From Oceanispirochaeta sp. (GTDB lineage: Bacteria > Spirochaetota > Spirochaetia > DSM-2461), in assembly GCA_963666275.2 (NCBI GenBank), contig CAXXOA010000001.1, positions 608,001 to 672,000 on the forward strand: a stretch of DNA of 64,000 bases, given 5' to 3'. The notes under the pieces are model-generated. The model was not told where the DNA came from and did no database searches. It saw nothing but the letters and a program-made list of their open reading frames with translations. Position 1 is the first letter of the stretch. Every line of letters starts with the position of its first letter. Shown piece by piece: positions 18,723 through 61,533 of the stretch. The position numbers and the translations under genes were made by a program.

Positions 18723-18754
18723 AGTGATTACTGACGGGAATGGATTGGTGATTC

Positions 18755-18788: not shown

Positions 18789-18808
18789 GAAATGTTCATT
18801 TTCTCAAA

Positions 18809-31949: not shown

Positions 31950-32102
31950 CTAGCAGATCTCCCTCTGGATCTTTAAGAAAAAGTCCAAATCCCCTTTCTC
32001 AAAATGAGAATAATTCCTCGTAGTCTCGATATCTTTGTGCCCGACAATCTGCTGGACAAGGTAGAGAGGCATCCCTGTAGCAAGAAGTCTGCTATTACAG
32101 TA
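31950..32102 (-). pseudogene. Tyrosine recombinase (integrase) C-terminal remnant
   Basis: Hand translation YCNSRLLATGMPLYLVQQIVGHKDIETTRNYSHFEKGDLDFFLKIQREIC* contains box II GH...T..Y. Not in the ORF track. Confidence 0.8.
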
Positions 32103-32356
32103 GGAAGAAAAGCTGAAATGGATTCTGTATTCAGCAGAATGAAAGAAATTTATTCTTAATGATGAAATCTCTCAATCTCAATTGAATGTGGCAATATTGC
32201 CAGATTTAACCGCCTGTTCACCAGGTGAACCGATAAATATAATACTACTATATGAACCGATGGTTCATATTGCATAAGCTTCATGCATTGAGTTGAACTT
32301 GTACTATCAGCGGTACTAATCATGAAATCTTGCATATATCACTATTACAATTAAAT

Positions 32357-33244
32357 TTATACCGTAGCTGTAACATCAAGTTTATCTCTTGCAGGAGTTA
32401 TTCCAAAGAGCCGTTTATATTCCCGGCTGAATTGAGAAGAGCTTTCATACCCAACTCTGGAGGCTGCTGAATAAGCCTTTTCTCCTTCAATTTGAATGAG
32501 CTCTTTTGCTCTATGCAGTCTGATATTCTTTATATACTGCAAAGGTGATGTACTGGTAACTGCCCGAAAATTATTATTAAAAGCAGATACGCTCATTCCT
32601 GCTTCTTTTGCCAGTGTTTGCATCTCAAGTGGATCAGAAAAGTTCTCATTGATGATATTAATGACCCTTGAAATCTGGTATAGATTTCTATTGTTGTATG
32701 CCAATTCCTTTAGAAATTCACCATGTTCACCCCGAAGAACCTTAAATATGATTTCTTTAACATAGAGAGGACCGAGTATCTCTGTATCATCCTTTGTTTT
32801 TATGGCTTTCAGGAGACGAACGGCTGCATCAATTATCTCCTCAGACATTTCGGCCCGAAACAGGCTATTGCTGATTTGATCCCTGTTGAGAGGAGCCGTA
32901 TTCATATCTGTAATGATTTCACCAATAATCTTTGGATCAATTTCTATAACAATTCCTAAAAGTGGTTCACCTGGTTTAATGATGGCTTCACATATTACAG
33001 GCAGAGGTACTGTTACAACAAAATAATTATTTTTGTCGTAAGTATAGATCTTATCTCCAAGATAAACATTCTTTGTCCCCTGAGCCATGAGAATGATTTC
33101 CGGTTTATATACAAGGGGAACTGCTTCATAAGGAGTTTCCCTTCTTATCAGATTAACACCGTTTACACTGGTTTGCATTTTCATGTCTGATGGCAGAAGT
33201 TCCATCAATAAATCCTTCATTGTTTCTATTGTGTAATTCATCAT
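32357..33244 (-). CDS. AraC-family regulator (YqhC-like N-terminal domain)
   Basis: AQGTK, SPLQYIK and VGYESSSQFSREYKRLFG. Confidence 0.92.
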   Translation of the reverse strand: MMNYTIETMKDLLMELLPSDMKMQTSVNGVNLIRRETPYEAVPLVYKPEIILMAQGTKNVYLGDKIYTYDKNNYFVVTVPLPVICEAIIKPGEPLLGIVIEIDPKIIGEIITDMNTAPLNRDQISNSLFRAEMSEEIIDAAVRLLKAIKTKDDTEILGPLYVKEIIFKVLRGEHGEFLKELAYNNRNLYQISRVINIINENFSDPLEMQTLAKEAGMSVSAFNNNFRAVTSTSPLQYIKNIRLHRAKELIQIEGEKAYSAASRVGYESSSQFSREYKRLFGITPARDKLDVTATV

Positions 33245-33432
33245 AATGTCCTTTCTAATAAAGATTATCTCATATGAGCAATAAATGTAATGAAAATCAC
33301 TCAATAACAAGATTGAATTAGCGGAATAGGCAATTCTAATATCCGAATTGGCATTTTATTGAATCCTCTTTGGCAATACATTTAAGCCAGAAGTTGAATC
33401 CATTCTGTGGTTTCAATGGAGAGGAGAGTTTA

Positions 33433-34827
33433 GTGGCTGAGAGTCTAAGTATAGAACCACAAATCACGAATAGTAAAATAGATATAGAACAGAAGGAGTT
33501 TTTGTTTACCAACAAGAATCTCATTTTTCTGTTTATACCAATTCTCATAGAGTTATTTTTGGAATACGCCGTAGGTTTTGCTGATTCAATTATGGTTTCC
33601 CATGTAGGTGAAGCCGCTGTATCTGGAGTATCCCTGGTAAATTTTATTATGCAGCTTCTTATAAGTCTGTTTGCAGCAATTTGTACCGGTGGTGCAGTGA
33701 TTGCCGGACAATATCTGGGAAAGAAGGATAAAAAGAATTCTATCCAGGCCGCAGATCAGTTGGTCTGGTTTGTCGGAATACTCTCTGCTGTTATTATGAT
33801 TATTACTTTAATGTTGAAATCTTTCATCATAGGAACCTTATTCGGACATATTTCAGAAGAAGTACGGGCAAATTCGGAAATCTATTACAATATAGTCATT
33901 CCATCGATTCCATTTCTTGCCTTGATCAATGCAGGAGCTGCCGTATATCGAACATCCGGTAATTCCAAACTTCCCATGAAAATAATGCTGGGGGTCAATT
34001 CCATCAATGTATTGGGAAATGCCTTCTTAATCTATGGTATGAAAATGGGAACAGCAGGGATTGCCATACCAACACTTATATCACGAATAGCTGGTGCAGT
34101 AATCCTCATTTCCCTTCTTTTGAATAACAGGCTTCCCTTGCATATCAAAAGTGAAATCAGGCATCACTTCGACTTTCCAATGATTGCGAGAATCTTGCGG
34201 GTAGGTGTCCCTTTCGGACTGGAAAACAGCTTGTTTTTTCTGGGAAGACTCCTGGTTCTAAGCTTGGTAGCGACATTAGGAACTCCATCGATTGCTGCAA
34301 ATTCCATTGCACTTACTCTGGCTCTCTTTTCTGTTCTTCCTGGAATGGCAATAAATATTGGAATGACTCCAGTGATCTCCCAGTGTATTGGAGCAGGCGA
34401 TTTTGAGCAGGCACGATTTTACCATAAGAGGATACTGCTTTTTATCTATGTTTCCTTAATTGCAATAAATGCCGTAATCCTGACTTTATTACCGGGGATT
34501 CTCAATGTCTATCATCTGTCTGAAACAACCTACCATCTTACCTATCAACTGGTTTTCTGGCATGGAGTCGTCGCAGTATTAATCTGGCCCATGGCTTACT
34601 CTCAACCCGTGACATTCCGTTCGGCCGGTGATGCCAGATTCCCTATGCTGACAGCGACTATTTCGATGTTCATTTGCCGGATACTCATGTCTTACATCTT
34701 TGTGCAATTTTTTAGAATTGGTTTGTTTGGAACCTATTTAGCAATGTTTATGGATTGGGTCGTTAAAGCCATCATATTTACCGTCCGCTATATTTCCGGG
34801 CGATGGATGCGATTCAAATTGATTTGA
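33433..34827 (+). CDS. MATE-family efflux transporter
   Basis: DSIMVSHVGEAAVSGVSL; about 12 TM helices; GTG start after GAGGAG. Confidence 0.9.
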   Translation: MAESLSIEPQITNSKIDIEQKEFLFTNKNLIFLFIPILIELFLEYAVGFADSIMVSHVGEAAVSGVSLVNFIMQLLISLFAAICTGGAVIAGQYLGKKDKKNSIQAADQLVWFVGILSAVIMIITLMLKSFIIGTLFGHISEEVRANSEIYYNIVIPSIPFLALINAGAAVYRTSGNSKLPMKIMLGVNSINVLGNAFLIYGMKMGTAGIAIPTLISRIAGAVILISLLLNNRLPLHIKSEIRHHFDFPMIARILRVGVPFGLENSLFFLGRLLVLSLVATLGTPSIAANSIALTLALFSVLPGMAINIGMTPVISQCIGAGDFEQARFYHKRILLFIYVSLIAINAVILTLLPGILNVYHLSETTYHLTYQLVFWHGVVAVLIWPMAYSQPVTFRSAGDARFPMLTATISMFICRILMSYIFVQFFRIGLFGTYLAMFMDWVVKAIIFTVRYISGRWMRFKLI

Positions 34828-34852
34828 AAACTATTAGTTAGAAGGAGTTTAT

Positions 34853-35707
34853 ATGGAATATGTTGAATTAAATAATGGAATCAAAATGCCTATGCTCGGT
34901 TACGGGGTTTATCAGGTGAACCCCGATGAGTGTGAAAGATGTGTTCTGGATGCCATCTCTACTGGATATCGTCTTATTGATACCGCCCAGGCTTACTTCA
35001 ACGAAGAAGGGGTTGGTAGGGCTATTGAAAAATGCGAGGTGCCCCGGAATGAACTTTTCATCACAACAAAAGTCTGGCTTGAAAATTATGGATTTGAGAA
35101 AACAAAAGAATCTGTCTACAGGTCCATGGAGAAACTCAAGCTTGATTATCTGGACCTGGTTCTACTCCATCAGCCTTTCAGTGATTATTACGGATCTTAT
35201 CGTGCACTGGAAGAACTATATCGGGAAGGGGTTCTGAAATCCATCGGGGTTAGTAATTTCTATCCCGATAGATTATCTGATATCTGTGCTTTTACAGACA
35301 TCATCCCACAGGTCAATCAGGTAGAGACAAATCCTTTGAATCAGCAGATTGAAGCCCAGATCAACATGGATAAAAATAATGTACGAATAGAATCCTGGGC
35401 TCCTTTCGGAGAGGGTAGAAGTGGTATGTTCTCCAATTCTGTATTGACGGGAATCGGCAACAAATATGGAAAATCTTCGGCTCAGGTAATCCTCCGATGG
35501 CTTGTACAGCGTGGAGTTATTGCTTTGGCAAAGTCTGTTCGCATAGCGCGGCTGAAAGAGAATTTTGAAATATTCGACTTTGAATTATCAGTGGAGGATA
35601 TGGAAATGATCAAAGCTTTGGATACCCAGACCAGTCTGTTTTTCTCCCATCAGGATCCTGCCACAGTGGATTTTTTTGTTGAACTGATAAAGAAACGGAG
35701 ACAGTAA
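34853..35707 (+). CDS. Aldo/keto reductase (2,5-DKG reductase-like)
   Basis: IDTAQAY, ITTK, LLHQP and IGVSNF. Confidence 0.93.
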   Translation: MEYVELNNGIKMPMLGYGVYQVNPDECERCVLDAISTGYRLIDTAQAYFNEEGVGRAIEKCEVPRNELFITTKVWLENYGFEKTKESVYRSMEKLKLDYLDLVLLHQPFSDYYGSYRALEELYREGVLKSIGVSNFYPDRLSDICAFTDIIPQVNQVETNPLNQQIEAQINMDKNNVRIESWAPFGEGRSGMFSNSVLTGIGNKYGKSSAQVILRWLVQRGVIALAKSVRIARLKENFEIFDFELSVEDMEMIKALDTQTSLFFSHQDPATVDFFVELIKKRRQ

Positions 35708-35717
35708 CGGTAAGAAT

Positions 35718-36386
35718 ATGAAAAAGATCTTATTTACATTTATAGCACTGACCCTATTTCTTTCGTTTGCCGGATGTGAAGAACGTTCCACTAATGAAGT
35801 CCGGAATGAGGCTGAAAGTAATGAAACGGAGAGTTCTATAAACAGTAACATACTCGTTGTCTACTTCTCTATGCCGGAGAGTAGCGGTATTGATGCATTG
35901 GCAGGTGCGAGCAGGGTTGTTGAGAACGGGATTGTTCTTGGAAATACCCAATGGGTTGCAGATCGAATTGTTGAATTAACAGGAGCAACTCAATTTGCTA
36001 TTAAAACAGTACAGGATTATCCCGGAAGTCATAAAGCTCTTGTCGAGCAAGGTACAACAGAGAAGAGAACTAATGCACGTCCTGATCTTAGAACGCATAT
36101 CAGCAATCTTGATGACTATGATGTGATCTTTATAGGTTATCCAATCTGGTGGGCTGAACTTCCTATGCCTCTTTACAGTTTCTTGGAAGAGTATGATTTT
36201 TCTGGAAAGAGAATTATTCCCTTCAGTACTCACGGAGGAAGCCAACTAGCTGGAACAATTGATACCCTTAAAGAAAAACTTCCCAACTCAGAGGTGGTTG
36301 AGAATGCATTCACTGTATCCCGCGATCATGTTCGGGAAAGCAAAGCAAGCATTGCAGATTGGTTGGATGAACTGGGGGTGATATGA
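35718..36386 (+). CDS. Lipoprotein flavodoxin
   Basis: Lipobox FAGC; GNT, GYPIWW and FSTHGGS. Confidence 0.85.
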   Translation: MKKILFTFIALTLFLSFAGCEERSTNEVRNEAESNETESSINSNILVVYFSMPESSGIDALAGASRVVENGIVLGNTQWVADRIVELTGATQFAIKTVQDYPGSHKALVEQGTTEKRTNARPDLRTHISNLDDYDVIFIGYPIWWAELPMPLYSFLEEYDFSGKRIIPFSTHGGSQLAGTIDTLKEKLPNSEVVENAFTVSRDHVRESKASIADWLDELGVI

Positions 36387-36904
36387 AAAAGAGAATCTTA
36401 ATTGCCTATTATTCACGAAAGGGTCAAAACTATTCTGATGGAAGTATTGTCGACTTGAAGGTTGGTAATACTGAGAAGATGGCAGGTTATATTAAAGACA
36501 TCACCGGTGGAGACCTCTTTGAAATTACAACGGTTAAGTCCTATCCCCTTGATTACACAGAAACGACGAGGGTCGCGCAGAGAGAACTTGATGATAATAC
36601 AAGACCTGAATTAAAAGAGTACCTAACGGATCTGGATGAGTACGATACTCTTATCCTGGGATATCCCAATTGGTGGGGGACAATGCCGATGGCTGTATTC
36701 TCATGTTTTGAATTGGTTGATCTATCTGGAAAAACAATTCTCCCTTTCTGTACTCATGAAGGCAGTGGCTTGGGACATAGTATACAGGATCTGAAATCTT
36801 TTGCGGGTAATGCTGAAATAAAAGAAGGACTGGCAGTACAAGGTTCCCAGGTGGATCAAGCTCAACAAACTGTTAGTCGCTGGTTAAAAAATTTGGAGTA
36901 CTGA
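36383..36904 (+). CDS. Flavodoxin
   Basis: AYYSR, GNT, GYPNWWG and FCTHEGSG. Confidence 0.9.
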   Translation: MKKRILIAYYSRKGQNYSDGSIVDLKVGNTEKMAGYIKDITGGDLFEITTVKSYPLDYTETTRVAQRELDDNTRPELKEYLTDLDEYDTLILGYPNWWGTMPMAVFSCFELVDLSGKTILPFCTHEGSGLGHSIQDLKSFAGNAEIKEGLAVQGSQVDQAQQTVSRWLKNLEY

Positions 36905-36937
36905 TTGCTGTCAGCTATAACTTGAAGGATTGGAAAA

Positions 36938-38044
36938 ATGAATAGTATTAAGAAGAACTTTGGATTCGGTTGTATGCGGTTGCCTATGAAAAATGGAGAC
37001 GTCGATTATGATCAGTTCTCTGAGATGATCGATACATTCCTGGGAAATGGTTTTAACTATTTCGATACGGCTCATGTCTATCTTGGCGGGAAAAGCGAAC
37101 CTGCACTGAGGGAGTGCCTGGTAAAGCGATACCCCAGAGACAGCTATATACTGACGACAAAGTTAACACAGCACTGCTTTAATAAAGAGGAAGAGATCCG
37201 TCCTCTGTTTGACCGTCAGTTGAAAGCATGCGGTGTAGATTATTTTGACTACTATCTTATGCATGCTCAGAGTGAAGAAATCTATGCAAAGTTCACGTGT
37301 TGTCGCGGATATGAAATATCAAGGGAGCTGAAGGCTGAAGGAAAGTTCAAGCATTTCGGTATTTCATTCCATGATAAAGCATCGGTACTGGATAAAATCC
37401 TAACAGAAAATCCTTATATCGAAGTGGTTCAGATTCAGCTTAATTATATGGATTTTGAAGACCCTGCCGTACAGAGCAGAGAGTGCTATGAAGTTTGCAG
37501 AAAGCATGGGAAGCCTGTCATTGTCATGGAACCCCTTAAAGGGGGGAATCTAGTCAATCTTCCGGAGCAGGCTGCTCGTTTATTCGATGAACTTCAGGGA
37601 GGCAGCTACGCAAGCTATGCTCTCCGTTTCGCGGCCGGGTTTGAAGGTGTATTAATGGTGCTTTCCGGTATGAGCAATATGGAAGATATGAAAGACAACA
37701 TCAGTGCCATGAAAGAGTTTGAGCCTTTGACAGAGAGGGAGAAACAGACAATAGATAAGGTTTGTGAGGTTTTCAGTTCCATGAGTTTAATCCCCTGTAC
37801 TGCCTGCCGCTATTGTACGGATGGATGTCCAAAGAACATTGATATTCCGAATCTATTTGCATGTATGAATGCCAAGGAACTCTACAACAACTGGAATACC
37901 GATTACTATTACAGTAATGTTTATACAGTCAGAAATGGTAAAGCATCGGACTGTATAAAGTGTGGGAAATGTGAGTTCGTTTGTCCCCAGCATCTGAAAA
38001 TTACTGAATTACTTGCAAATGTTGCCGCAGAATTTGAAAAATAG
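36938..38044 (+). CDS. Aldo/keto reductase with a C-terminal 4Fe-4S dicluster
   Basis: GFGCMRLP and FDTAHVY; CTACRYC...CP and CIKCGKC...CP. Confidence 0.9.
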   Translation: MNSIKKNFGFGCMRLPMKNGDVDYDQFSEMIDTFLGNGFNYFDTAHVYLGGKSEPALRECLVKRYPRDSYILTTKLTQHCFNKEEEIRPLFDRQLKACGVDYFDYYLMHAQSEEIYAKFTCCRGYEISRELKAEGKFKHFGISFHDKASVLDKILTENPYIEVVQIQLNYMDFEDPAVQSRECYEVCRKHGKPVIVMEPLKGGNLVNLPEQAARLFDELQGGSYASYALRFAAGFEGVLMVLSGMSNMEDMKDNISAMKEFEPLTEREKQTIDKVCEVFSSMSLIPCTACRYCTDGCPKNIDIPNLFACMNAKELYNNWNTDYYYSNVYTVRNGKASDCIKCGKCEFVCPQHLKITELLANVAAEFEK

Positions 38045-38127
38045 AATGAGATTTGTAATCCCCGGTTTATAAAGTACATTTCCATCATTTGTACTTTGTT
38101 TTCCAGGGGATTACAGCTAATCATGTA

Positions 38128-38279
38128 ATATCGAATTCCTGCTCCATTCCAACCAATCCCATCATCGGAATTGAATGTGGAGAGATTGCTACATTCCCGG
38201 CTCGGATATCTTCAAATCCACGTTATAATGATGGTTGCTGAGAGGTTCAGAGTTTAAACCCTACATAAACAAAAGTGCC
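38128..38279 (+). repeat. Intergenic repeat family, long copy
   Basis: Core TTCCAACC..TCCCATCATCGGAA.TGAAT.TGGAGAGATT.CTA.ATT; the last 39 bp match 56305-56343 at 38/39. Confidence 0.9.
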
Positions 38280-38322
38280 ATACCCTGAGCGTCAGTTGGA
38301 GGTAAGGTTTAAATCGGTAATA

Positions 38323-38381
38323 TAGAAATCATTCTTAATTTGAATCAATCCTGTCATCGGAACTGAATACGATGGAGAGGT
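38323..38381 (+). repeat. Intergenic repeat family, degenerate copy
   Basis: AGAAATC...CAATCCTGTCATCGGAACTGAATACGATGGAGAG. Confidence 0.6.
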
Positions 38382-38698
38382 TATAGGATTCAATATCCTG
38401 CACATCCTTGACTCAGTATTTTCCTTTTTCACCAAACTAGGGAATTTCAACAAATATAATCAAATGTACTACTGGAGCTGTTAATCCTTGTTTCTTTCTC
38501 GAATCGAAAAGGTTTTTTAATGACAAAAAATCTTATAGTTTTAATCTAAATCAACAGGAATAGGTCTGTTCTGTACTACCGTCTTCATGACTATTGTGGA
38601 TGTAAGGCGCTGAACCGATGGAATCTTTGATAAAGATTGATCATATAATGAACCGCACCGGGTTTTCCGGAGACACAATTATGTGAGAGGATTGTGTT

Positions 38699-39927
<1,229 letters not shown>

Positions 39928-40339
39928 AACAGTCTCCGGAATTTCCGGTACGGTTCAAAGCTTATTTTTTTAATATGTATTCTCTTGAACAAAGATTTTC
40001 ATGGTCTCACAGATACGGGATATCTCATTTGTATTGCGTAGCTCTTTGATAAGTAGGATCGGTTGCTTTATTTTCTCCCTTGAGATGTACAAATTTATGA
40101 TATCCTTCACAGGGAGAAAAGGAGTTTCTAGGCTCTAGTTGTCTTTCATTTTCTGGAATGGTGTGATGAATAGTATCTTTGAAAACATCATATGTCCTCT
40201 GGTTCCGGCAAGAAGCGTATTTGTAAATAATCTGGACTAACTCTGAAAATACCGAAAGTTTACTTTCCTGTTACTCTTCAGACAGATATTTCCTTTAGAA
40301 AATACATCATGCGGACTGTTCCGCATCTAATAGGAGATA

Positions 40340-41380
40340 TTGAAAATGAGAAAGGCATTGTTTGCTTTATTAATAACCATAGCAGTAATTTTCACTTCCT
40401 GCTCCGGCGGAAATGACGAATCTCAGGAACAACTGCTGTCCGGACAATCAAAGGATGCTCAAGTCCCTGTCAGGGTGGAAAAAGTAGAGAGCGAATCGTT
40501 CAGACAGTACCAGTCCTATACTTCAGTTCTGAATGGCTCAAATGAAGTTGTAAAAAATTCTGCTCTCAGCGGAGTTATCGAAGACGTCCTGTTTGAGACA
40601 GGGGATTTTGTACAAAAAGATGAAATCGTCCTGACTTTTCCGAAGGAGACCTCTTCCGCTCAGTATTATCAGAGCCGGGCATCATATGAAGCTGCCGAAA
40701 AAACATTCAGCCGTATGAAAAATCTCTATAACAGCAATAGCATTTCCAGGCAGGAATATGAGCAGGCAAAAACTCAGTACGATGTTCAGCGGGCTAATTG
40801 GAAGGCAGTCTCCGATATGGTCGAAGTGAAAGCCCCGGTTTCCGGCTACATCACACTCTTGTCGGTAAATGCATCAGACAGCGTCTCTCAGGGGGACTCT
40901 CTATTTACTATATCCAACTATCAGACTCTTACGGCGACGATTTCGGTTCCGGACCGCTTCATCAAGGATCTATCTGTAGATCAGGATGCGGAAGCCATTT
41001 GGGAGGGCAATACGGTTTTCGGTAAAGTCACTCGTGTCAATCTGTCCAAAGATTCCAGACATAAAGCGTTCACCGTTCAGCTGGCATTCGGCAATCCCGA
41101 CTTCATAATACCCAGCGGCGTCACAGCAAAAATACGTATCAATACTATGATAAATGATGATGTCATTGTACTGCATAGAGATCAATTCCTGACAGATCAT
41201 TCAGGGGCCTATGCTTTTGTGCTGAATAATGGAAAGGCCGAAAAAAGGGATCTCCAACTGGGCCGCCATCATGGATTCTACTATGAAATAGAATCGGGGC
41301 TTACTGAAAATGATATTCTGATTATCGAGGGACTCCTGCTGCTTGAGAATCAATCAGATGTTACGGTCATTAACGGCTGA
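40340..41380 (+). CDS. RND efflux periplasmic adaptor (lipoprotein)
   Basis: Lipobox FTSC; VKAPVSG. Confidence 0.9.
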   Translation: MKMRKALFALLITIAVIFTSCSGGNDESQEQLLSGQSKDAQVPVRVEKVESESFRQYQSYTSVLNGSNEVVKNSALSGVIEDVLFETGDFVQKDEIVLTFPKETSSAQYYQSRASYEAAEKTFSRMKNLYNSNSISRQEYEQAKTQYDVQRANWKAVSDMVEVKAPVSGYITLLSVNASDSVSQGDSLFTISNYQTLTATISVPDRFIKDLSVDQDAEAIWEGNTVFGKVTRVNLSKDSRHKAFTVQLAFGNPDFIIPSGVTAKIRINTMINDDVIVLHRDQFLTDHSGAYAFVLNNGKAEKRDLQLGRHHGFYYEIESGLTENDILIIEGLLLLENQSDVTVING

Positions 41381-41393
41381 AGGAGGTAAATAT

Positions 41394-45834: not shown

Positions 45835-45846
45835 GCAGGCTAGCAT

Positions 45847-46533: not shown

Positions 46534-47569
46534 AATCAACTTACTGAAAGATCTGAAAATCAGCCTGGTTATTCTCTCGTTTATTATCACCAATACTTCT
46601 GTTATGGTGTTTGCCTTTCTTGATTACTGGATATCCGCACATTTCGGCCGGTCTGTGAATTATAATCCCTCCGACGCTTTAGGAATGATTATCCCCATGG
46701 GGGCTGTTATGGGAATAATCTCCTGGATTCTGATAAATATCAGTTATAAATATGTTTCAACCCTGTTAAAGGGGATTAACAGAGTTTCCAGGGGAGAGTT
46801 CTCTACCAGGCTGGATGTGGGGAAAGGGGGGCCCTTAAAAGAGATCTACCGGAATTTCAATAAAATGGCGGATGAGCTTGAAAACACCCAGACCCTGAGA
46901 GAAGATTTTATTAATCACTTTTCCCATGAGTTTAAAACACCTATCATGTCTATCAACGGCTTTGCAACCTTGCTTATGGATCAGGAAATCAGCGATGAAG
47001 AGAGAAGGAAATATCTGGGGATAATCTCCAAAGAATCCAGAAGATTAACCGAATTATCGAACAACTCTCTTCTGCTTTCCCGGCTTGAATCAACACAGAT
47101 ACAGGCCAACCTGGAAGCCTATCAACTGGATGAACAGATTCGGGAATGCGTTATTCTTCTTTCTCCTCTCTGGAACGGCAAGAATCTAGATGTCTCTGCA
47201 GACCTGTCCCCGGTGATACTGGAAGCTGATAAGGGATTGATGAAACATGTCTGGATTAATCTTCTTTCCAATGCTGTGAAATTCACTCCCTCCGAGGGAA
47301 CTATCAGTATTGAACTGTCTGTCAAAGGCGATGTCTGTATCATCTCCATTAAAGATTCCGGTATCGGTATGGAAGAGGATGATCTGGAAAAGATTTTCCG
47401 GAAATTCCAGAAAGGGAAAAATATGTATATGTCCAACGGTCTGGGGCTAGGACTGTCTATTGTCAGGAAAATTGTTGATCTTTCACAAGGAACCATTCAT
47501 GTGGATAGTTCTCCCGGGAAAGGGAGCTGTTTTTCTGTTACTCTGCCAATAAAAAAAATCAAAAAATAA
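46523..47569 (+). CDS. HAMP sensor histidine kinase (two TM helices, short loop)
   Basis: SHEFKTP, NLLSNAVKF, DSGIG and GLGLS. Confidence 0.93.
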   Translation: MKHKINLLKDLKISLVILSFIITNTSVMVFAFLDYWISAHFGRSVNYNPSDALGMIIPMGAVMGIISWILINISYKYVSTLLKGINRVSRGEFSTRLDVGKGGPLKEIYRNFNKMADELENTQTLREDFINHFSHEFKTPIMSINGFATLLMDQEISDEERRKYLGIISKESRRLTELSNNSLLLSRLESTQIQANLEAYQLDEQIRECVILLSPLWNGKNLDVSADLSPVILEADKGLMKHVWINLLSNAVKFTPSEGTISIELSVKGDVCIISIKDSGIGMEEDDLEKIFRKFQKGKNMYMSNGLGLGLSIVRKIVDLSQGTIHVDSSPGKGSCFSVTLPIKKIKK

Positions 47570-47653
47570 TAAGTTTACATATATGTAACCTGACGCTTTT
47601 AAATTACCAGTAGAAAGAAAATCTATTTTAGAAAGGAAATTTGGTAGTTTAAA

Positions 47654-48841
47654 ATGAAGAATTTAGTTTTTATAGCATTAGTTTTGATCCCTGTTTTTTA
47701 CGGTGGTGAATCCCTGCATGCTCTGGTCCTGAAGGATATTGAGATCGGGGGAGACATTAAAAAAACAAAAGATGAGACTGTTCTGAATATCATACAGTAT
47801 GAAATCGGCAATGAAATCGGGTCTTCGGATCTGCCTCTGATTGAACAGCGTCTGATTAAATCGGGAATCTTTATTAATGAAGAAACCCGTATCGATTTAA
47901 TTGAAGAGGAAGACCAGGCTGTTCTGGTGCTGACATTGGCCGATAAATTCAGTTTCGTACCCATCCCTATTGTCAAAGGGGGGGAAGAAACAAAAGCCGG
48001 GCTGTTCCTGATGGATAATAACCTCTTCGGTACGGCTGACACACTCTTTCTGGGCGGTATTTTCGGAAAAGATGATATCCTTTTTATGTCCAATTATACA
48101 AACACCCTTGTCAATGGAAGCAACATGGACCTGGGGGCCGGTTTCTTCTATATAAAAGAAGAGAGTGAAATTTCCGATGCCAGCGGGGATCGTCTTGCCG
48201 AGAGGGATCAGGAGTCCATAAGCGCTCAGGTTTTCAGTACCTGGCATCTGGGACAGTGGAATCTGACTCCGACGTTTTCTTTGGGATCCGTTGAATATGA
48301 CAGTTATGACCACCTGACTACTTATAGCTCTAAATTTGCCTTCAATTACAATAATTTATTCTGGGGATCCTTCTTTCCTGAAGGTTTGAACTGGGACGGT
48401 GAATATTCAGCCACTCTGTATTCAGACGAATTCGGTCTGAAACAGGAATCGAAAGCAAAACTGAGCTGGGATAAGAATCTCACTGATCGGTTGCACATGA
48501 CCCTTGGCGGTAGAGGAATGTGGTTTGATGGGGATGAGATTCTCAGTTCTCAAGTGGTGTCGTCAATTCTCCCCGCAAGTGTCTACGCAGATGTGAATAT
48601 GGAAGCCAGCGCCACTCTTAATATAGCACTTATGGATTTTTCCTGGGGATTTATCTCTCTTCCTCTGGCATTCCATGTCGGATACTTTGATGGTATAAGC
48701 GGAAGTAATGAGCTCTATTACGGCCCTTCGGCAGAGCTGAATCTGAATCTGAAAAAGATTGCCATGCCGGCGATCTCTTTAAAATACGGTTGGAATATGG
48801 AAACGACCACTCCTGTTATTCAGGCAAATGTGGGGTTTTAA
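47654..48841 (+). CDS. POTRA plus beta-barrel outer membrane protein (Omp85-like)
   Basis: Signal peptide; IEIGG..KTK (POTRA), DNNLFG and C-terminal Phe. Confidence 0.6.
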   Translation: MKNLVFIALVLIPVFYGGESLHALVLKDIEIGGDIKKTKDETVLNIIQYEIGNEIGSSDLPLIEQRLIKSGIFINEETRIDLIEEEDQAVLVLTLADKFSFVPIPIVKGGEETKAGLFLMDNNLFGTADTLFLGGIFGKDDILFMSNYTNTLVNGSNMDLGAGFFYIKEESEISDASGDRLAERDQESISAQVFSTWHLGQWNLTPTFSLGSVEYDSYDHLTTYSSKFAFNYNNLFWGSFFPEGLNWDGEYSATLYSDEFGLKQESKAKLSWDKNLTDRLHMTLGGRGMWFDGDEILSSQVVSSILPASVYADVNMEASATLNIALMDFSWGFISLPLAFHVGYFDGISGSNELYYGPSAELNLNLKKIAMPAISLKYGWNMETTTPVIQANVGF

Positions 48842-48872
48842 TCACCGGAATTAATGCGCGAAGGAGATTAAT

Positions 48873-49733
48873 ATGAAAGTACAGGATAAAATCGTTGTCG
48901 TTACTGGAGCAGGAGGTGGTCTGGGTCAGCAGCTGGTGCTTCAGCTCGTCAGAGAAGGGAATCATGTGGCAGCTGTTGATATCAACAGGGATGCTCTGGA
49001 CGCAACAAAACTCAAAGCTGCTGAGTTTTCCCGGACGCTCAGTATTCACAGGGCAGACATCACAGATAAAGAACAAATTTTATCCCTTGCCAAAGAGATC
49101 GGAGAACGATTCGGAAAGATCGATATTCTGATCAATAATGCAGGAATTATACAGCCCTTCAAAACGTTCTATGATCTGGAGGACGATGCTATACAGAGGA
49201 TTTTCAATATCAATGTGTACGGGATGATCAATATGACAAAAGCATTCCTTCCCTTACTCGCAGCTGCTGATGAATCCAGTCTCTGCAATATATCCAGCAT
49301 GGGAGGTTTTCTTCCCGTGCCCGGTCAGTCCATATACGGTGCATCGAAGGCCTCTGTGAAAATTATCACGGAAGCTCTCGTCCAGGAGTTATCCAGGACA
49401 AATATTCACGTCTCAGTTGTTTTCCCAGGGGGAATCGATACGGATATAAAAAAGAATTCCGGGCTGAAAGAGGAGAGTTCAGGAAAAGAGAAAGCCTCTG
49501 CCGGTTTAAAATTAACCACTCCCGAAAAGGCTGCTGAGATCATCCTGCAGGGAATCAGACTGAATAAACAGAAAATACTGATCGGGAAAGATGCATTAAT
49601 CATGGATATCATCTATAGATTGTTTCCGTTTTCCGCTGCCAGACTTATCAGCAGAAAGATGTCAAAAAATCATGGCAGAATATTTAATGAGCCTGAGAGT
49701 TTGAAAAATAGTGTAATGAGTGAACACAGGTAG
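48873..49733 (+). CDS. SDR-family oxidoreductase
   Basis: TGAGGGLG, NNAG and YGASK. Confidence 0.93.
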   Translation: MKVQDKIVVVTGAGGGLGQQLVLQLVREGNHVAAVDINRDALDATKLKAAEFSRTLSIHRADITDKEQILSLAKEIGERFGKIDILINNAGIIQPFKTFYDLEDDAIQRIFNINVYGMINMTKAFLPLLAAADESSLCNISSMGGFLPVPGQSIYGASKASVKIITEALVQELSRTNIHVSVVFPGGIDTDIKKNSGLKEESSGKEKASAGLKLTTPEKAAEIILQGIRLNKQKILIGKDALIMDIIYRLFPFSAARLISRKMSKNHGRIFNEPESLKNSVMSEHR

Positions 49734-49785
49734 GGAGACTCCTATTTTAAAAAAGAATATAATTGTATAGAGGAGTTCTTTCATC

Positions 49786-52050
49786 ATGCATAGTCCGAAA
49801 TTATTTAAACAGTTCACAGGATTCGTGGCCGGTTTATTTTTACTCTCTGGATTTTTTACTTTCCCGGTTGCCGCAGAGGACGCTTCAATTGAAAAGAAAA
49901 CACCGAAAATAGCTCTTGTTCTGCAGGGGGGAGGGGCTTTGGGAATAGCTCACATAGCTGTGATTGAAGAACTGGATCGTCTGGGGATCCCTGTGGATCT
50001 GGTTGTAGGAACCAGTATGGGGGCTATTGTCGGTGGACTCTACAGCAGCGGATATAGCGCTGACGATTTGGAGTTGCTTGTAAATACAACTGACTGGATG
50101 GAGCTTTTCATCCCTCAGACCCCCTATTACAATAAGCCAATACGGGACCGTTATGATGAATCCCGGTACCTTTCTTATGATTTTTCCCGGGAAAAAGTCC
50201 CTGTAGCGAGAGGGTTCCTTTCCGACAGGAATATACTCTCCTATTTTGATCAGCTCACCCTGGATTACGGAAATAATATCCCCTTCAGTTCTCTGCCGAG
50301 GGAGTTTCGAGCAGTTGCGACGGATATTACCAACGGTGAGAGGGTAGTTATCAGTGAGGGATCCCTTTCGGAGGCTATGAGGGCCAGTATGGGAATCCCC
50401 GGTTTGTTCGCTCCCTATTATATTCAGGATCGTTTGCTTGTGGACGGCGGACTGGTGGATAATCTCCCCATTGATGTGGCCAGAGAAGCCGGGGCCGATT
50501 ACATAATTGCCATTCAGCTGACCGGTGGCATGCCCTTTTCCCCTGAAGAGCTGAAATCCTCTCCTCTGGGCTCCTTGTCGAAAACAATTGATATTATGAT
50601 TTATCAGAATGTTAAATCCAATTATTCGATGGCTGATTTTATCCTGAATATTGATCTTACCGGATATCAGGCTGTTGATTTCATGAAGAGCGAAGAAATT
50701 CTTGCCATCGGGAAAAGAACGGTAGAAGCGAACACCGAAAACTTAGCAGAACTGAAAGATCAGCTTCTCAGGATGGGAGCACATAGCAAGGTTAGCGATA
50801 TTACGCCGCAGAAAATTGATCATGTCCAGATCAACGGGGCATCAAGGCAGGACCTGCGGAAAATAAGGGAAGAGTTCTCCTCTTTCGAGGGAGCATTTGC
50901 CGACCGGGAAACAGTGAAATCCGTAATGGACGATTTATCCCGGAATGATATCTACAAAGAGATCAGGCTGGGACGCGTTGTCAATGAGTCGGGACGATCG
51001 GATCTGGTTCTGGATCTGGAAAGGAACAGGGAGATCAACAGTGTTAATATCGGGTTTTCTTCCGCTTCAACCTATTCCGATCGCATCAACAGTCTGGATG
51101 TTATATCCGGTGCTTTGATCTTAAGGGGGGTTTTTATTCCCGAATCCAAGTGGACCCTGGGATTTCAGATAAACGATACACCCGGATTGAGCCTCTCCTA
51201 CCTACAGCCTTTCGGCCCCATTTATACAAATCTGTCCTATCAGATATCTACAGATAGAGTCCTTACTTCTTCCGAGGATACGGGAGGAGGACCCTTTCAG
51301 GTAAGAAGCAGTAAATTTCAGATGGAAACAGGTATTAATCCTATGAACATTATCGATTTTTCCATCGGTTTGGACTATGACTATTCCGTTCTGGGAGATA
51401 AATATGCCCAGATAAACGACCTGGATCAGGATGAACATCTGCAGATCCTGTTCAGTGAATTTGAATTTCTCACACTGGACCATTTTCTTTTCCCTGAAAA
51501 AGGAATCCATGTTAATAATAGTTTTTTCTATAATCTCCACGGATTCAGCGGGGATGAATCCTTTCAGGTCCTGGAGACCTTCGGGACAGTCGCTATGCCT
51601 GTCACTTCGCTCATTTCCCTGGAAGCCGAGTGGATAGGTGGAACGGATTTTTCCGGAGGGGGAATGAGTAGTCAAAGTGCCCCGATATTGTATAAACCTA
51701 ATCTTGGTAATAGACGAATCTTTCCCGGTACACTGAATGAAAAAGAAGAGTTCGGGAGTTTTGTTTCCGGGGGCAGCTTGCTTTTCAAGTACAGGGTCGA
51801 TTCTCAGCATAGTAGTTCGTTGTTTCCGATGTACCTTATCTTTCAGGGGGCTGCCGGTTATGTCTCTCCCGATGCCGGTCAAATACGAAAAATCGAAGAT
51901 TCTCTCTCCTGGCACTTCAATACAGGAGTCGGATTTCGATTCTCCGATTCTTTCGGGTTGATGGTGAGAACCGGGACTTATCATGGCTTTGATAGCGGAA
52001 ATGCCGGGTTTATTGCGATTGATATCGGGTCTTTCGGGGTTCGTGACTGA
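49786..52050 (+). CDS. Patatin-like phospholipase with POTRA/beta-barrel (PlpD-like)
   Basis: GGGALG, GTSMG and DGG; signal peptide; beta-rich C-terminus. Confidence 0.85.
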   Translation: MHSPKLFKQFTGFVAGLFLLSGFFTFPVAAEDASIEKKTPKIALVLQGGGALGIAHIAVIEELDRLGIPVDLVVGTSMGAIVGGLYSSGYSADDLELLVNTTDWMELFIPQTPYYNKPIRDRYDESRYLSYDFSREKVPVARGFLSDRNILSYFDQLTLDYGNNIPFSSLPREFRAVATDITNGERVVISEGSLSEAMRASMGIPGLFAPYYIQDRLLVDGGLVDNLPIDVAREAGADYIIAIQLTGGMPFSPEELKSSPLGSLSKTIDIMIYQNVKSNYSMADFILNIDLTGYQAVDFMKSEEILAIGKRTVEANTENLAELKDQLLRMGAHSKVSDITPQKIDHVQINGASRQDLRKIREEFSSFEGAFADRETVKSVMDDLSRNDIYKEIRLGRVVNESGRSDLVLDLERNREINSVNIGFSSASTYSDRINSLDVISGALILRGVFIPESKWTLGFQINDTPGLSLSYLQPFGPIYTNLSYQISTDRVLTSSEDTGGGPFQVRSSKFQMETGINPMNIIDFSIGLDYDYSVLGDKYAQINDLDQDEHLQILFSEFEFLTLDHFLFPEKGIHVNNSFFYNLHGFSGDESFQVLETFGTVAMPVTSLISLEAEWIGGTDFSGGGMSSQSAPILYKPNLGNRRIFPGTLNEKEEFGSFVSGGSLLFKYRVDSQHSSSLFPMYLIFQGAAGYVSPDAGQIRKIEDSLSWHFNTGVGFRFSDSFGLMVRTGTYHGFDSGNAGFIAIDIGSFGVRD

Positions 52051-52072
52051 TCATGTTGTATTCCATTTTTTC

Positions 52073-52333
52073 TGACTTGTCCTCCTATTTCTGGTACCTG
52101 TCATTTTCCTAGGCCCTACGAAAATCTGTAGTTACCGTGCATAAAACTCAATTGGTTTACATCCCTGTCTCAAGCAAGACAGATAATTGAATGCTGGAGG
52201 CAGGAATATAATACAATCCGCCCCCATAGTTCATTAAATGATTTGTCGCCAGAGAATTCCGGCGTAAGTTTGAAGAGTCAGAAAACAAGGAAGAACCCCT
52301 AAATGCTACTGGATGAATATGGGGGTAAGGTCA
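52073..52333 (+). mobile_element. IS3-family remnant, possibly an internally deleted element
   Basis: From 52150 it reads NWFTSLSQARQIIECWRQEYNTIRPHSSLNDLSPE; the right end is ...GGGGGTAAGGTCA; there is a weak left-IR candidate TGACTTGTCCTCC at 52073. Confidence 0.7.
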
Positions 52334-52391
52334 CTGACTAAGAGAGCATTTTGAAGTAATCTATCTGCAGAATCAGGGGATTGCCAATATC

Positions 52392-52937
52392 ATGATAGAA
52401 GAGATTATTAAGAAAAGAAAAAGCATCAGACAATTTAATGACGAAGAACTGGATATTTCACAGATTTTAGATACTATAAATATAGCCAAATTTGCTCCTT
52501 CAGGTAAGAATCGCCAACCATGGAAAGTCAAATTGCTTGAAGGAAATGATAAAGAAACTCTTTTGGAGATCTTGAAAGCAAATCCCGATGAGAAGACAGC
52601 AGCAGGATCTTTTTCTATCTCAATCAATGCGATTGAGCAGAGCAGTATCACTTTATTGATCTTTAATCCTTTTTCTTACAAAGAGGAAAATTATTCCCAG
52701 AATAGATTACTCATGGATACTCAATCTATAGGAGCATTTATCCAAAATATACTATTACTCTGTACTGAGAGAGATATTTCAACATTATGGATAAACGATG
52801 TTTATTATGAAAAATCCGCTATTGAGAGTTTTTATGTTAAAGGTGAAATGGAATTAATTGCAGCAATTGCAATGGGGTATAGTAATCAAGAAAGAAGGTT
52901 CAATATCCGCCATGAAATTGGTGACATCATTCTTTAG
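52392..52937 (+). CDS. Nitroreductase-family protein
   Basis: RKSIRQF and APSGKNRQPW. Confidence 0.9.
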   Translation: MIEEIIKKRKSIRQFNDEELDISQILDTINIAKFAPSGKNRQPWKVKLLEGNDKETLLEILKANPDEKTAAGSFSISINAIEQSSITLLIFNPFSYKEENYSQNRLLMDTQSIGAFIQNILLLCTERDISTLWINDVYYEKSAIESFYVKGEMELIAAIAMGYSNQERRFNIRHEIGDIIL

Positions 52938-52964
52938 TATGATAATTTCATAGATTCTGAATAC

Positions 52965-53050
52965 AGAAATCCTGCTCAATTCCAACCAATCCCATCATCG
53001 TAATGGAATATGGAAAGATTACTATATTACTGGCGAAGCGAGGTATATTG
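52965..53050 (+). repeat. Intergenic repeat family copy overlapping the MATE stop codon
   Basis: AGAAATCCTGCTCAATTCCAACCAATCCCATCATCG...GGAAAGATTACTATATTAC. Confidence 0.85.
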
Positions 53051-54379
53051 AAGCAATGGGTTTCCAGAATCGGGAGGGGAGGACCTTTGTTTATTCGAAA
53101 CTCCTAAAAGAACTGTTGATATGATAAGCGTTAGAACTTCTGCGATTCCGACAGTATTCCATATAATTTTATTGCCAAAGATGAATGGTAATAAAGTAAT
53201 CGAGAGAGGAGTCAAAATCAAGCATCTACTGCTGGCAATAATGACTGCAAATCTGGTCTGTTTCGTTGAGTAAAAGTACGTTGTTATCAACAGATTTACA
53301 GCCATGACAATAAACGCCCAGCTAAAGGCTGGAAGAGCGTTGATTGTAGTCTTAATTAATATAGGATTTGAATTAAACAACATGGTAATTCTGTCCCTGA
53401 AGATTGTATATAACAAATAAACAGTGATGGCGCTTAAAGTATTGATGATAATTCCTGAATAAAAATAGTACATCAGATCCTTTTTGCTCTTGCGTCCAAA
53501 ACTTTGGCCTAACAAAGGCTGCATCCCTTCTGATACACCTATGAAAATCCCCAATGAAAAGGATGTTAAGTATGAGATAATCGAGAATGCTGATACTGAG
53601 ATATCTCCTATTCTCTTGATTAGGATGTAATTCATGCAAAGTGTCATGGTGGGCATCCCCAATTGGGATATCATTTCAGGAAAACCGCGCAAGACAATCT
53701 TTCTTATCAGTACAGTAGATATTGAAAAAGGACTGATCTGTAGTCTTCCTCTCCGGAGTATGAAATGACTTATTAAAATCAGGAAACTTATAACCTGTCC
53801 TAACCCGGATGCAATGGCAGCTCCCTTTATTCCCATTCTTAGAGGGAAAACAAAAAGCCAATCCAGAAATATATTCATTACAGCACCCGAAATGACAGCA
53901 ACACTCACAAGAATAGGGGCATTATCATTTCTTATGAAACCCTGTAATATAATGCTGCATAAAAGAGGGAGTGAGAAGGCGCTGAAATAGAATAGATATT
54001 CGTCCGTCATTTTCGCGAATGTCTCATTTGCACCGGTTAATACAGCAATTTTCTCGGAGAAAAGCATCCCTAGAACCATCAATGAAATTCCAGCTAAAAA
54101 AGCCATGGTACTTGAATGCATAAACGCGTCGTTAGCGCCGTCTATATCTTCTCGGCCAAAACGAATTGCTGTAATAGTCGTCCCTCCTATGGTCAGTAAG
54201 ATAGCAAGTGCATTTGCCATAAGAGTGAACGGCATCGCTAAATTGACAGCACCCAGAGCGTCCACCCCAATCCCCCGACCAACAAAGATTCCATCCACTA
54301 TTACATATAAAAATGTAGTTGCTGATCCTGCGACTGTTGGGAGAATATATTTATATAGATTTTTGGTTTGTTCTTTCAT
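53027..54379 (-). CDS. MATE-family efflux transporter
   Basis: VDGIFVGRGIG..ALGAVNL and GMQPLLG; about 12 TM helices. Confidence 0.92.
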   Translation of the reverse strand: MKEQTKNLYKYILPTVAGSATTFLYVIVDGIFVGRGIGVDALGAVNLAMPFTLMANALAILLTIGGTTITAIRFGREDIDGANDAFMHSSTMAFLAGISLMVLGMLFSEKIAVLTGANETFAKMTDEYLFYFSAFSLPLLCSIILQGFIRNDNAPILVSVAVISGAVMNIFLDWLFVFPLRMGIKGAAIASGLGQVISFLILISHFILRRGRLQISPFSISTVLIRKIVLRGFPEMISQLGMPTMTLCMNYILIKRIGDISVSAFSIISYLTSFSLGIFIGVSEGMQPLLGQSFGRKSKKDLMYYFYSGIIINTLSAITVYLLYTIFRDRITMLFNSNPILIKTTINALPAFSWAFIVMAVNLLITTYFYSTKQTRFAVIIASSRCLILTPLSITLLPFIFGNKIIWNTVGIAEVLTLIISTVLLGVSNKQRSSPPDSGNPLLQYTSLRQ

Positions 54380-54395
54380 GCAATTCCTTCGTTTG

Positions 54396-54842
54396 TTAAA
54401 GAAGATGTTCAGTTTCTTTGCGGAATAGATCTAAATATTTTTGAGAGCTTAGTATTAGACTTTTTCTCTCATCCTCGGTCATTCTTTTCCATGTGCGTTC
54501 TTCAAATTGAAATACAATTGCTATGAACTCATTAGCATAATTCTGACCAGATTCGGTTAATTCAATGATTTTACTTCTTTTATCACGTTCAGATTTTTTC
54601 AGAGTAATGAATCCAGCTTTCTCGATTTCTTTGAGAGCACTATTTACGGTTTGCTTACTCATAGACCATTGATCACATATATCCTTCTGAGTAATGTGGT
54701 CGTTCATTTCATATATTGCGTAGAAAACCCAATAGCCGCTTTCTGAAAGATTACTTCTTTGGGCAAGCTTTTTGTAAACGGCATCAGTTTGTTTCCAGAT
54801 AGAAAAGTATTCCTGCAACTGACAATGCAATTCCTGAGTCAT
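54396..54842 (-). CDS. MarR-family regulator
   Basis: TQKDI...SKQTV and DKRSK..LTESG. Confidence 0.92.
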   Translation of the reverse strand: MTQELHCQLQEYFSIWKQTDAVYKKLAQRSNLSESGYWVFYAIYEMNDHITQKDICDQWSMSKQTVNSALKEIEKAGFITLKKSERDKRSKIIELTESGQNYANEFIAIVFQFEERTWKRMTEDERKSLILSSQKYLDLFRKETEHLL

Positions 54843-54858
54843 TTTTTACCTCACAAAA

Positions 54859-54874
54859 AGTCCGAAATCGGACT
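54859..54874. promoter_or_regulatory. Candidate MarR operator
   Basis: Perfect palindrome AGTCCGA-aa-TCGGACT, 16 bp upstream of the marR start. Confidence 0.6.
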
Positions 54875-55023
54875 ATATTAGAAAAGAAACTCAATTTCCT
54901 GTCAAGCGCGATGGAATGACTTTGCAATAAAAAAATATTTTTTTGTATTAGAACGATAACGATGATGAAGCACGTAAAATCTTTTTTCTCTACTGGGGAT
55001 TCCACGTATCTATGAGTTAATGG

Positions 55024-55153
55024 AGAAATCTAGCTCACTTCCAACCTGTCCCATCATCGGAACTGAATCTGGAGAGATTGCTATATTACCGGTATATGGG
55101 ATATCTGTTGCAAAGACCACTCTCTCGGCTTCTCTGTAGGATGGTTATGAGAG
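55024..55153 (+). repeat. Intergenic repeat family copy
   Basis: AGAAATCTAGCTCACTTCCAACCTGTCCCATCATCGGAACTGAATCTGGAGAGATTGCTATATTACCGG. Confidence 0.88.
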
Positions 55154-55353
55154 ACCAAAGTGATGGATATCACGGTTAGTTTAGGACAGTGATGCCAGCA
55201 TTGATGCTTTTTTGAAATTCTTCCGGTCCTGGAATGGTGAAGGATTTCGCTATTCTTATATGCTAATTGGATAATCCGCTTTATTTATTCTATCTGAAAT
55301 GATATCAATTGAAGAGTAGTATAAAATTCTACGATTATGGTAATGGGGACCCT

Positions 55354-56154
55354 ATGGAACTGATAAAAAAAAGAATAGTGATAAAAGTTGGAACCTCTAC
55401 ACTTACTAATGAAAGTGGTGAAAAGAAATTACGATCCTTTGATCAATTGGCACGAGTCATCTCTGATTTGAATAATGCAGGTTATGAAACAATTCTTGTT
55501 TCATCTGGTGCTATAGCTGTAGGGGTCAATAAACTTCAGATGAAAGAACGTCCTCGGGAAATGCGGTTGAAACAGGCTTCTGCAGCGGTTGGGCAAAGTC
55601 GTATAATGAACCTTTACAGTAAGTTCTTTAACGATTATGACAAGATTGTCGCACAAATACTCCTTAATGCAGATGATATAAAACATGAAGAAAAGAAAGA
55701 GAACCTTATCAATACATTCGATTCTTTGCTTGAATTGGGTGTAATTCCCATCGTCAATGAAAACGACTCTGTAAGTTACACAGAAATTGAATCAGAAGAC
55801 AAAATTTTTGGTGATAACGATATGCTTTCGGCAGTTGTAGCTGTCCTATGTAGGGCAGAGATGCTCGTTATCTTTTCCGATATAGACGGATTTTATGATA
55901 AAGATCCCCGTCTTTATGCTGATGCGAAACTGATAGAGTGCATTTCTTGCATTGATGAAGAAATCATATCATTGGCTGGAGGAGCCGGTTCCCGTAGAGG
56001 AACTGGAGGGATGAAGACAAAAATCCAAGCAGCAACTCTCGCTACTAAACAGGGCATTGATACTATCATCACAAATGGAAAAAATTCTGCATCTCTTTAC
56101 GATATTATTGATGGTAAAAAAGTGGGAACATTGTTCAGCGGACAACAAATGTAA
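55354..56154 (+). CDS. proB: Glutamate 5-kinase (no PUA domain)
   Basis: VIKVGTS, VSSGAI, NEND, FGDND and GTGGM.TK. Confidence 0.93.
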   Translation: MELIKKRIVIKVGTSTLTNESGEKKLRSFDQLARVISDLNNAGYETILVSSGAIAVGVNKLQMKERPREMRLKQASAAVGQSRIMNLYSKFFNDYDKIVAQILLNADDIKHEEKKENLINTFDSLLELGVIPIVNENDSVSYTEIESEDKIFGDNDMLSAVVAVLCRAEMLVIFSDIDGFYDKDPRLYADAKLIECISCIDEEIISLAGGAGSRRGTGGMKTKIQAATLATKQGIDTIITNGKNSASLYDIIDGKKVGTLFSGQQM

Positions 56155-56196
56155 TTCAAGAATTAAACATCTGCATTCTGTTCGTATTTGAATGCG

Positions 56197-56343
56197 ATAT
56201 CGATGTTCAACTGCAACCTGTCCCCTAATCAGAACTGAATGTGGAGAGATTACTACATTACAGGCTCAGTTCTCTTCAAAACCACACTATAATGAAAGCT
56301 GCTAAGAGGTTCAGAGTTTAAACCCTACATAAACAACAGTGCC
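56197..56343 (+). repeat. Intergenic repeat family, long copy forming the island's right boundary
   Basis: Aligns with 38128-38279; ends ...AACAACAGTGCC directly at recQ sequence. Confidence 0.9.
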
Positions 56344-58274: not shown

Positions 58275-58315
58275 AAGAGAATTTTAGCAAAGACAGGAAT
58301 TTGAGTAAATTCCTT

Positions 58316-61520: not shown

Positions 61521-61533
61521 AAAATCATCTAAC

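Follow-up and report, generated by a model that had tools for sequence, protein, structure and literature searches.

What is the sequence that recurs between unrelated groups of genes at positions 32,143 to 56,343 of a 64,000-nucleotide stretch of Oceanispirochaeta sp. DNA (assembly GCA_963666275.2, contig CAXXOA010000001.1, positions 608,001 to 672,000 of the forward strand; hereafter the window), and does it move those genes? A preliminary description of this stretch had proposed a family of repeats in the same orientation that marks a gene-capture array, repeatedly delivering stress and detoxification cassettes to one locus. We followed the repeat through the source genome (G000; 5.27 Mb; contigs C1, C2 and C3) and its relatives (G001, G002 and so on), and found that it is a composite of defined anatomy, that it clusters in islets, and that gene modules are exchanged at it. 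The explanation that fits best, and to which we give about equal weight for and against, is that it is a composite site-specific recombination site of small integrase-less tRNA islets in free-living spirochaetes, the window holding a displaced, decayed array.

Anatomy and clustering of the composite site

A complete copy of the repeat is 71 bp long and consists of an outer palindromic box of 24 bp (O), a 23-bp linker and a second O box, with a dyad (D) lying inside the linker. The O box follows the approximate consensus KAAT-N3-G-N-AA-N2-TT-N-C-N3-ATTM (106 distinct sites) and D reads WGTCCC-N6-RGAACW. Across 25 copies from seven genomes the arms of D are near-constant and its 6-bp spacer varies by lineage, being ATCATC in 13 copies, of an ACC type in G005, G008 and G017, and of a further type in G075; the commonest O spacers are each found in just three or four of the 25. 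Positions 1, 2, 4, 5 and 7 of the D arms are complementary in 19–24 copies, position 6 in 10 and position 3 in none. Inverted arms around a spacer of 6–8 bp that is common to partner sites make up the layout of a tyrosine recombinase core site, and D, with its 6-bp spacer, has this layout.

Five near-complete copies and one internally deleted copy are present in the window, all on the + strand as previously described, at spacings of 192 to 14,641 bp and with pairwise similarities of 75–88 % across 60–75 bp. Copy 1 (38126–38196) comprises O1 at 38126–38149, a linker at 38150–38172 with the D spacer at 38161–38166, and O2 at 38173–38196; it is followed, to 38279, by an extension in common with copy 5, so that the repeats at 38128 and 56197 have an extra ~85 bp in common (130 bp at 84.6 %). 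Copy 2 (38318–38391) has O1 at 38318–38341, a D spacer at 38353–38358 and a degenerate O2. Copy 3 (52959–53029; O1 52959–52982, D spacer 52994–52999, O2 53006–53029) ends in the stop codon of a MATE gene, which forms the final three bases of its O2, and copy 4 (55018–55088) is built likewise of O1 at 55018–55041, a D spacer at 55053–55058 and O2 at 55065–55088. Copy 5 (56190–56260) has a degenerate O1, a D spacer at 56225–56230 and O2 at 56237–56260, and its extension, to 56343, passes directly into a duplicated recQ 5' fragment at 56342. The very degenerate copy that had been placed near 32143 is indeed there, at 32157–32340 (copy 0): a weak O at 32157–32180 and a second O at 32184–32207 are kept, the central dyad between them is deleted, and a shortened accessory tract, to 32340, contains a GTTCA-N5-TGAAC box (32216–32230), an AT-rich tract, a degenerate inverted dyad (32300–32317) and a weak O (32317–32340).

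In this respect copy 0 resembles the long, accessory-type copies of C2. In these a tract of ~230 bp follows the core, made up of four boxes of the GTTCA-N5-TGAAC type, AT-rich sequence, a degenerate D in inverted orientation and a further O; it is carried by three C2 copies and one G002 copy. Reading the copies in six frames gave no common open frame, and target-site duplications were limited to 2 bp or less at all 25. No stable single-strand hairpin was found either, with z values from -2.56 to +1.30 across 14 strands of seven copies and only one below -2.

A profile of the 32-bp core, whose training set held 11 of the 12 sites that it recovered, found 12 sites in the source genome with scores of 31.7–51.9, the next best match scoring 17.9. 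Five of these are in the window, six at C2 643–681 kb, one of them inverted, and one at C2 1,349,545; the GC-skew peak (C1 1.963 Mb) has none nearby. As all 12 copies fall in three clusters, the repeat is not scattered genome-wide in the manner of repetitive extragenic palindromes or miniature inverted-repeat transposable elements. The earlier statement that copies are missing from the flanks holds for the window but not for the genome, where seven more lie in two C2 clusters, and the idea of a single locus has to be given up in view of the three clusters and of tRNA-anchored islets in relatives.

Amongst 37 family genomes a sequence-only model found the composite site in seven, of which one, a G004 match of model R1 (E 0.004) that contained no recognizable site, was discarded, leaving six credible. 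In 145 genomes of the class the model returned G002 and one partial copy in G060, and G075 holds a diverged D with O. Two relatives carry the site inside tRNA-Met islets that resemble one of the source-genome clusters. Such a patchy distribution is to be expected of a mobile element. The core pattern did not occur in viral contigs, and no plasmid matches were found. One metagenome contig, agreeing with the pattern alone, was rejected, as were four of seven loci from the genome collection, which were non-spirochaete and matched over only 21–26 bp. G314 gave a hit with three mismatches.

Exchange of modules at the site

Exchange is seen in two modules of C2, one with a 2'-5' RNA ligase-family gene at 649.7–650.5 kb, bounded by two sites, and one of AAA_28-YitT-DUF3124 composition at 1,347–1,349 kb. 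These are 700 kb apart in the source genome and adjacent in G001, where 265448–266222 matches C2 649722–650496 at 95.5 % and 266212–268406 matches C2 1347388–1349581 at 97.7 %, and the homology ends inside the intervening site. The DNA downstream of the AAA_28-YitT-DUF3124 module is, moreover, different in each of G000, G001 and G002. For the window, a 3,228-base contig from run X4 (organism B, another study) aligns to 53006–55065 with 142 differences; at these two limits O2 begins, in copy 3 and copy 4 respectively, and beyond the module the contig continues with 555 other letters and then another copy of the site. The observed breakpoints lie between the D spacer and the O2 spacer. Additionally, 13 of 64 ends of shared islet segments fall within 60 bp of an O centre, compared with 6.3 % expected from the ends of open reading frames (ORFs). 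Gene content between the repeats is not fixed: other genes fill the slots in other genomes and homology breaks at the site. No excised circle was found in four runs, all of them available as contigs, from which rare forms are lost. Runs X1 and X3 contain backward joints at 55087 and 55254, but these are explained by other copies within the same genome and were not taken for circles.

The C2 643–681 kb cluster sits in a chain of islets behind tRNA-Met. Islet junctions constitute a second repeat family, in which the tRNA 3' half is flanked by arm repeats, and were matched in 19 of the 37 family genomes; the window repeat is not a tRNA fragment, a 3' tRNA part being found only in this separate C2 junction family. 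O is present in both attachment arms of the islets. Three C2 islets hold N-terminal stubs (about residues 1–140, 52–60 % identity) of an integrase whose intact form is found in G002 (C1 4409967–4411115), within a 51-kb element reaching from tRNA-Leu to an islet arm. This outer layer fits the tandem accretion and cis-mobilizable elements at tRNA and tmRNA genes treated in PMC5704250 and PMC3146451, which it resembles in that integrase-less islets are stacked behind tRNA-Met with junctions made of a tRNA 3' half and arms, three of them with integrase stubs; it differs in that the window repeat is a second site inside the islets, not a tRNA fragment, and in that the window cluster has no tRNA. 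As separate observations, the islet integrase ends after about 130–145 residues in four islets (G000 C2 647248, 652012 and 672408; G001:C12 742), and islet cargo includes Shedu SduA (L001:15304–16371) and Gp49-like (L001:17718–18083) genes.

If the repeat is a recombination site, D would serve a tyrosine recombinase as its crossover core, and proteins with an accessory or architectural role would bind to the O boxes and the accessory tract. A reaction between two sites in direct repeat would then release a module as a circle able to re-enter at another site. A tyrosine enzyme is favoured because no resolvase-family gene (PF00239) was found in G000, G002, G005 or G017. Of five genomes G001 alone has one, not near a site, and no cognate resolvase gene lies on the element; a serine resolvase res site was accordingly set aside. 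A recombinase co-occurring with the repeat, as had been sought, did not emerge: the remnant adjacent to copy 0 has no close intact relative, and the intact integrases examined are without the site. The enzyme would be supplied in trans by a helper element absent from these genomes, and it would form a second, internal system that permutes cargo within islets stacked by the tRNA-targeting layer. In its fullest form this would be a two-tier capture platform, in which a tRNA integrase stacks islets and a second recombinase, acting on the D-plus-O site, captures, excises and reorders multi-gene modules. We consider this extension unlikely, without being far-fetched. Were it true, it would represent an analogue of integrons that needs neither IntI nor XerCD, the spacers of each lineage setting which sites react. 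A further module-shuffling system with a site of its own would in any case widen the list of such systems, explain the gain of efflux, redox and defence genes at spirochaete tRNA hotspots, and possibly provide a new recombinase.

A number of findings weigh against site-specific recombination. No intact tyrosine recombinase stands beside a D-containing site at any locus examined, and the intact G002 element has neither the site nor an O box above 13 bits. O is far commoner alone than paired with D (which accompanied 4 of 200 O sides at the loci tested), and O boxes often lie directly upstream of start codons. The G002 junction is explicable by ordinary recombination within the 230-bp tract, 51 of the 64 segment ends, which are not independent, lie away from O boxes, and for one-sided pairs of O sites similarity reached the far edge of the box in 84 of 98 (+17 to +29), which does not fix the crossover point. 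Furthermore, no empty sites in relatives were found in 7.74 Mb of sequence examined, and among the window modules only MATE-MarR was found in an alternative site-bounded context.

Recombination site, operator or element end

The O box alone occurs much more widely than the composite. Islet loci picked by transposase gene (355 kb) gave 41 matches versus none when the sequence was reversed, and G000 gave 50 versus four; of these 50, 28 are in islets, nine in one repeated intron-encoded gene and 13 elsewhere, mostly inside ORFs. Several of its positions suit a different explanation, namely that O and D are operator remnants from the integrase, excisionase or transposase promoters of a lost element, left behind as scars, and that RecA-type or microhomology recombination between repeats of 70–300 bp has reshuffled the modules; we hold this to be a serious rival, though less likely than not. 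In G017 only 16 bp separate the end of a D-plus-O site from an excisionase-like HTH_17 gene that follows it, with a lone O at the equivalent place in G009. An O box lies 99 bp upstream of an integrase stub on C2, and of 25 upstream flanks of an rve-type transposase gene 16 contain O immediately ahead of the start codon. A dyad whose spacer varies would also suit a dimeric repressor. In disagreement with this, however, none of the window copies stands ahead of a mobile gene, three of them (1, 3 and 5) come after stop codons, and O is found right after the transposase stop in 6 of 35 3' flanks. The limited likeness of the window repeats also tells against it, as sequences 75–88 % alike over 60–75 bp are poor RecA substrates. 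Nor does O occur upstream of recA or lexA in G000, and for that reason, its matches being mostly in islets, it was not taken for the host SOS (LexA) operator. A further O box lies downstream of a related islet integrase in G009. Beside the G017 site, the HTH_17 gene is followed by a 378-aa protein (L143:10155–11640; likewise G009:C117 17103–18582) that belongs to neither a Pfam nor an NCBIfam family and was found at no viral locus and in two of 38 genomes; two distant relatives of it bear a phage-integrase domain.

The rve-type transposase belongs to a 343-aa insertion sequence (IS) that falls below the IS3, IS481 and IS6 cut-offs, has terminal repeats of its own and an O box in its interior, builds arrays of uniform orientation in islets of tRNA-Leu and tRNA-Met, and was matched in 18 of 131 class genomes (an example is L085:9521–10552). 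IS26 translocatable units build direct arrays of cargo, and the window repeats could in principle be eroded ends of an IS acting in this way, the more so as O lies inside its left end, same-orientation cargo arrays exist in G037 (C11 52–83 kb), G075 (C7 563–617 kb), G146 (C1 924–940 kb) and G123 (C1 3.60–3.62 Mb), and a left-end stub lies at G000 C2 653570–653655. The terminal repeats of the IS are nevertheless not found in the window repeat, nor D in the IS ends, G000 has no rve-type transposase gene, and none of the 25 copies shows a target duplication above 2 bp, which makes this origin improbable. As a by-product, a 24-bp box common to islet arms and the rve-type IS was identified across several families. 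We think it very improbable that the long copies are the replication origin and multimer-resolution site of excised islet circles, with the short copies as decay products: the four GTTCA-N5-TGAAC-type boxes at C2 650467 are phased (spaced 32, 20 and 21 bp) and followed by an AT-rich tract, with similar tracts in two other C2 copies and G002, but no replication gene adjoins any long copy, plasmid and viral matches are lacking, and by pattern the tract occurs in just 2 of 401 genomes, with a partial copy in G015. Least probable of all is that the repeats serve host XerC/XerD as pdif-like sites. Read on its bottom strand, D agrees at 8 of 11 positions with the arm of the host dif on the XerC side, a match within chance for the positions compared (estimate about 0.25), and the XerD-side arm is absent. 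The candidate host dif (G000:C1:1962570–1962597) is a different sequence, unlike both D and O and matched by the repeat in at most part of one arm, and is single-copy at the GC-skew peak; identity of the repeat with dif was dropped once it had been located. The candidate, found with a profile from the Leptospira and Brachyspira rows of PMC3025954, is matched exactly over 22 bp once each in G002, G003, G006 and G008 (four of five same-genus genomes) and thus provides, as a by-product, a dif candidate for the genus. Dif-like sites with a 7-bp spacer were also seen at C2 2561, C2 11751 and C3 4651, both C2 ones near tyrosine recombinase genes at the contig start. The consensus now available for the composite site allows a simple reporter test of whether it recombines.

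To our knowledge few systems shuffle gene modules via repeated recombination sites, chiefly integrons and dif modules. Integron arrays likewise have same-orientation repeats between unrelated cargo; here, in contrast, the repeats lack attC ends and a stable single-strand hairpin, and the modules are multi-gene, in both orientations and with their own regulators. The reported absence of attC was borne out, with no RYYYAAC...GTTRRRY end pair at any of the six window copies, as was that of a CRISPR structure, given the uneven spacing, the lack of any Cas family in 50 window proteins and an Rfam result limited to ALIL. An integron-type integrase is encoded in the source genome at C1 1.047–1.065 Mb (L140:600–18710), about 400 kb from the repeat array and without a copy of the site; upstream of it is an array of near-identical ORFs of ~430 aa with group II intron-like 3' ends, alternating with single genes.

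The dif modules of Acinetobacter come closer, and their sites alternate in orientation, whereas those described here are mostly direct repeats. According to PMC13141974, they are blocks of accessory genes, enclosed by short sites that are double-stranded and have a 6-bp spacer, and permuted between loci, with no recombinase in the array, and their reactions favour like spacers. Of the features that define pdif, the spirochaete sites have modules permuted with breakpoints at sites and lack a resemblance to the host dif with XerC and XerD arms; they are flanked by 24-bp boxes, and lie in chromosomal tRNA islets instead of on the Rep_3/OrfX plasmids of those modules (PMC13141974). The layout proposed here, a tyrosine-recombinase core with adjacent accessory motifs that favour a direct-repeat reaction, is that of the Tn4430 resolution site as given in PMC2847244, where TnpI, encoded on the element, binds all motifs of the core (IR1-IR2) and accessory (DR1-DR2) regions; in the spirochaete site, O differs from D in sequence and no recombinase gene is linked to it. 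We found no description of the site in a literature search that covered neither subscription papers nor bioRxiv supplements.

Modules and borders of the window

The order of modules given in the preliminary description agrees with Pfam and an integrase-family scan. An integrase remnant (31956–32153, - strand), representing the C-terminal part of a tyrosine recombinase (PF00589, E 3.9e-6) and with stop codons upstream, ends at the left edge of copy 0. It is 28–33 % identical over 53–58 aa to a spirochaete island-integrase family, and an intact relative was found in none of the 37 family genomes; no longer proteins matched it, which is weak evidence with a query of 66 aa. Module 1 (32357–38044) encodes AraC, MATE, aldo/keto reductases and two flavodoxins (Pfam), and no equivalent of its AraC-MATE block, taken as a unit, was found in five same-genus genomes. 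An IS3-family element (38649–39957, + strand) with terminal inverted repeats and an ALIL pseudoknot sits in the third slot. Module 2 (40340–52937, +) specifies an RND efflux system, a two-component system, an SDR protein, a patatin and a nitroreductase, module 3 (53027–54842, -) MarR and MATE, and module 4 (55309–56154, +) a proB-like amino-acid kinase (all by Pfam), a relative of which (78 %) lies downstream of an islet arm in G001 with borders that lack the repeat. Cargo was not purely of the stress and detoxification kind previously suggested, as genes of the Shedu, toxin-antitoxin-like, redox, transport and proB kinds are present too.

Between copy 4 and module 4 lies a fragment of the inner attachment arm of tRNA-Met islets (55185–55255, +), 92 % alike over 65 bp to a C2 islet junction and with a lone O box (55232–55255) at its end. 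The right border of the acquired segment is formed by a second recQ 5' end (56342–59070, -), 88 % alike to 18336–18690 and with an IS66 element inside (about 56696–59030). No tRNA was found in the window. We infer that the window cluster is a displaced, decaying piece of tRNA-Met-type islets, because of this inner-arm fragment, the integrase remnant at copy 0 and the segment bounded by duplicated recQ.

Around a 37-kb segment, the 5' end of recQ is duplicated, as is a FAD-binding gene at its 3' end, both at 88–89 % (window 18336–19087, 56342–59070 and 61528–61812), and in G003 (C2 688–698 kb) the 5' part of recQ is likewise duplicated with cargo between, which suggests a hotspot. To the left of the integrase remnant, a Mutator-family (IS256-type) transposase occupies 30495–31616, apparently within another IS remnant, and the intergenic region at 52138–52334 is 90 % alike to two places in G002 that adjoin IS genes.

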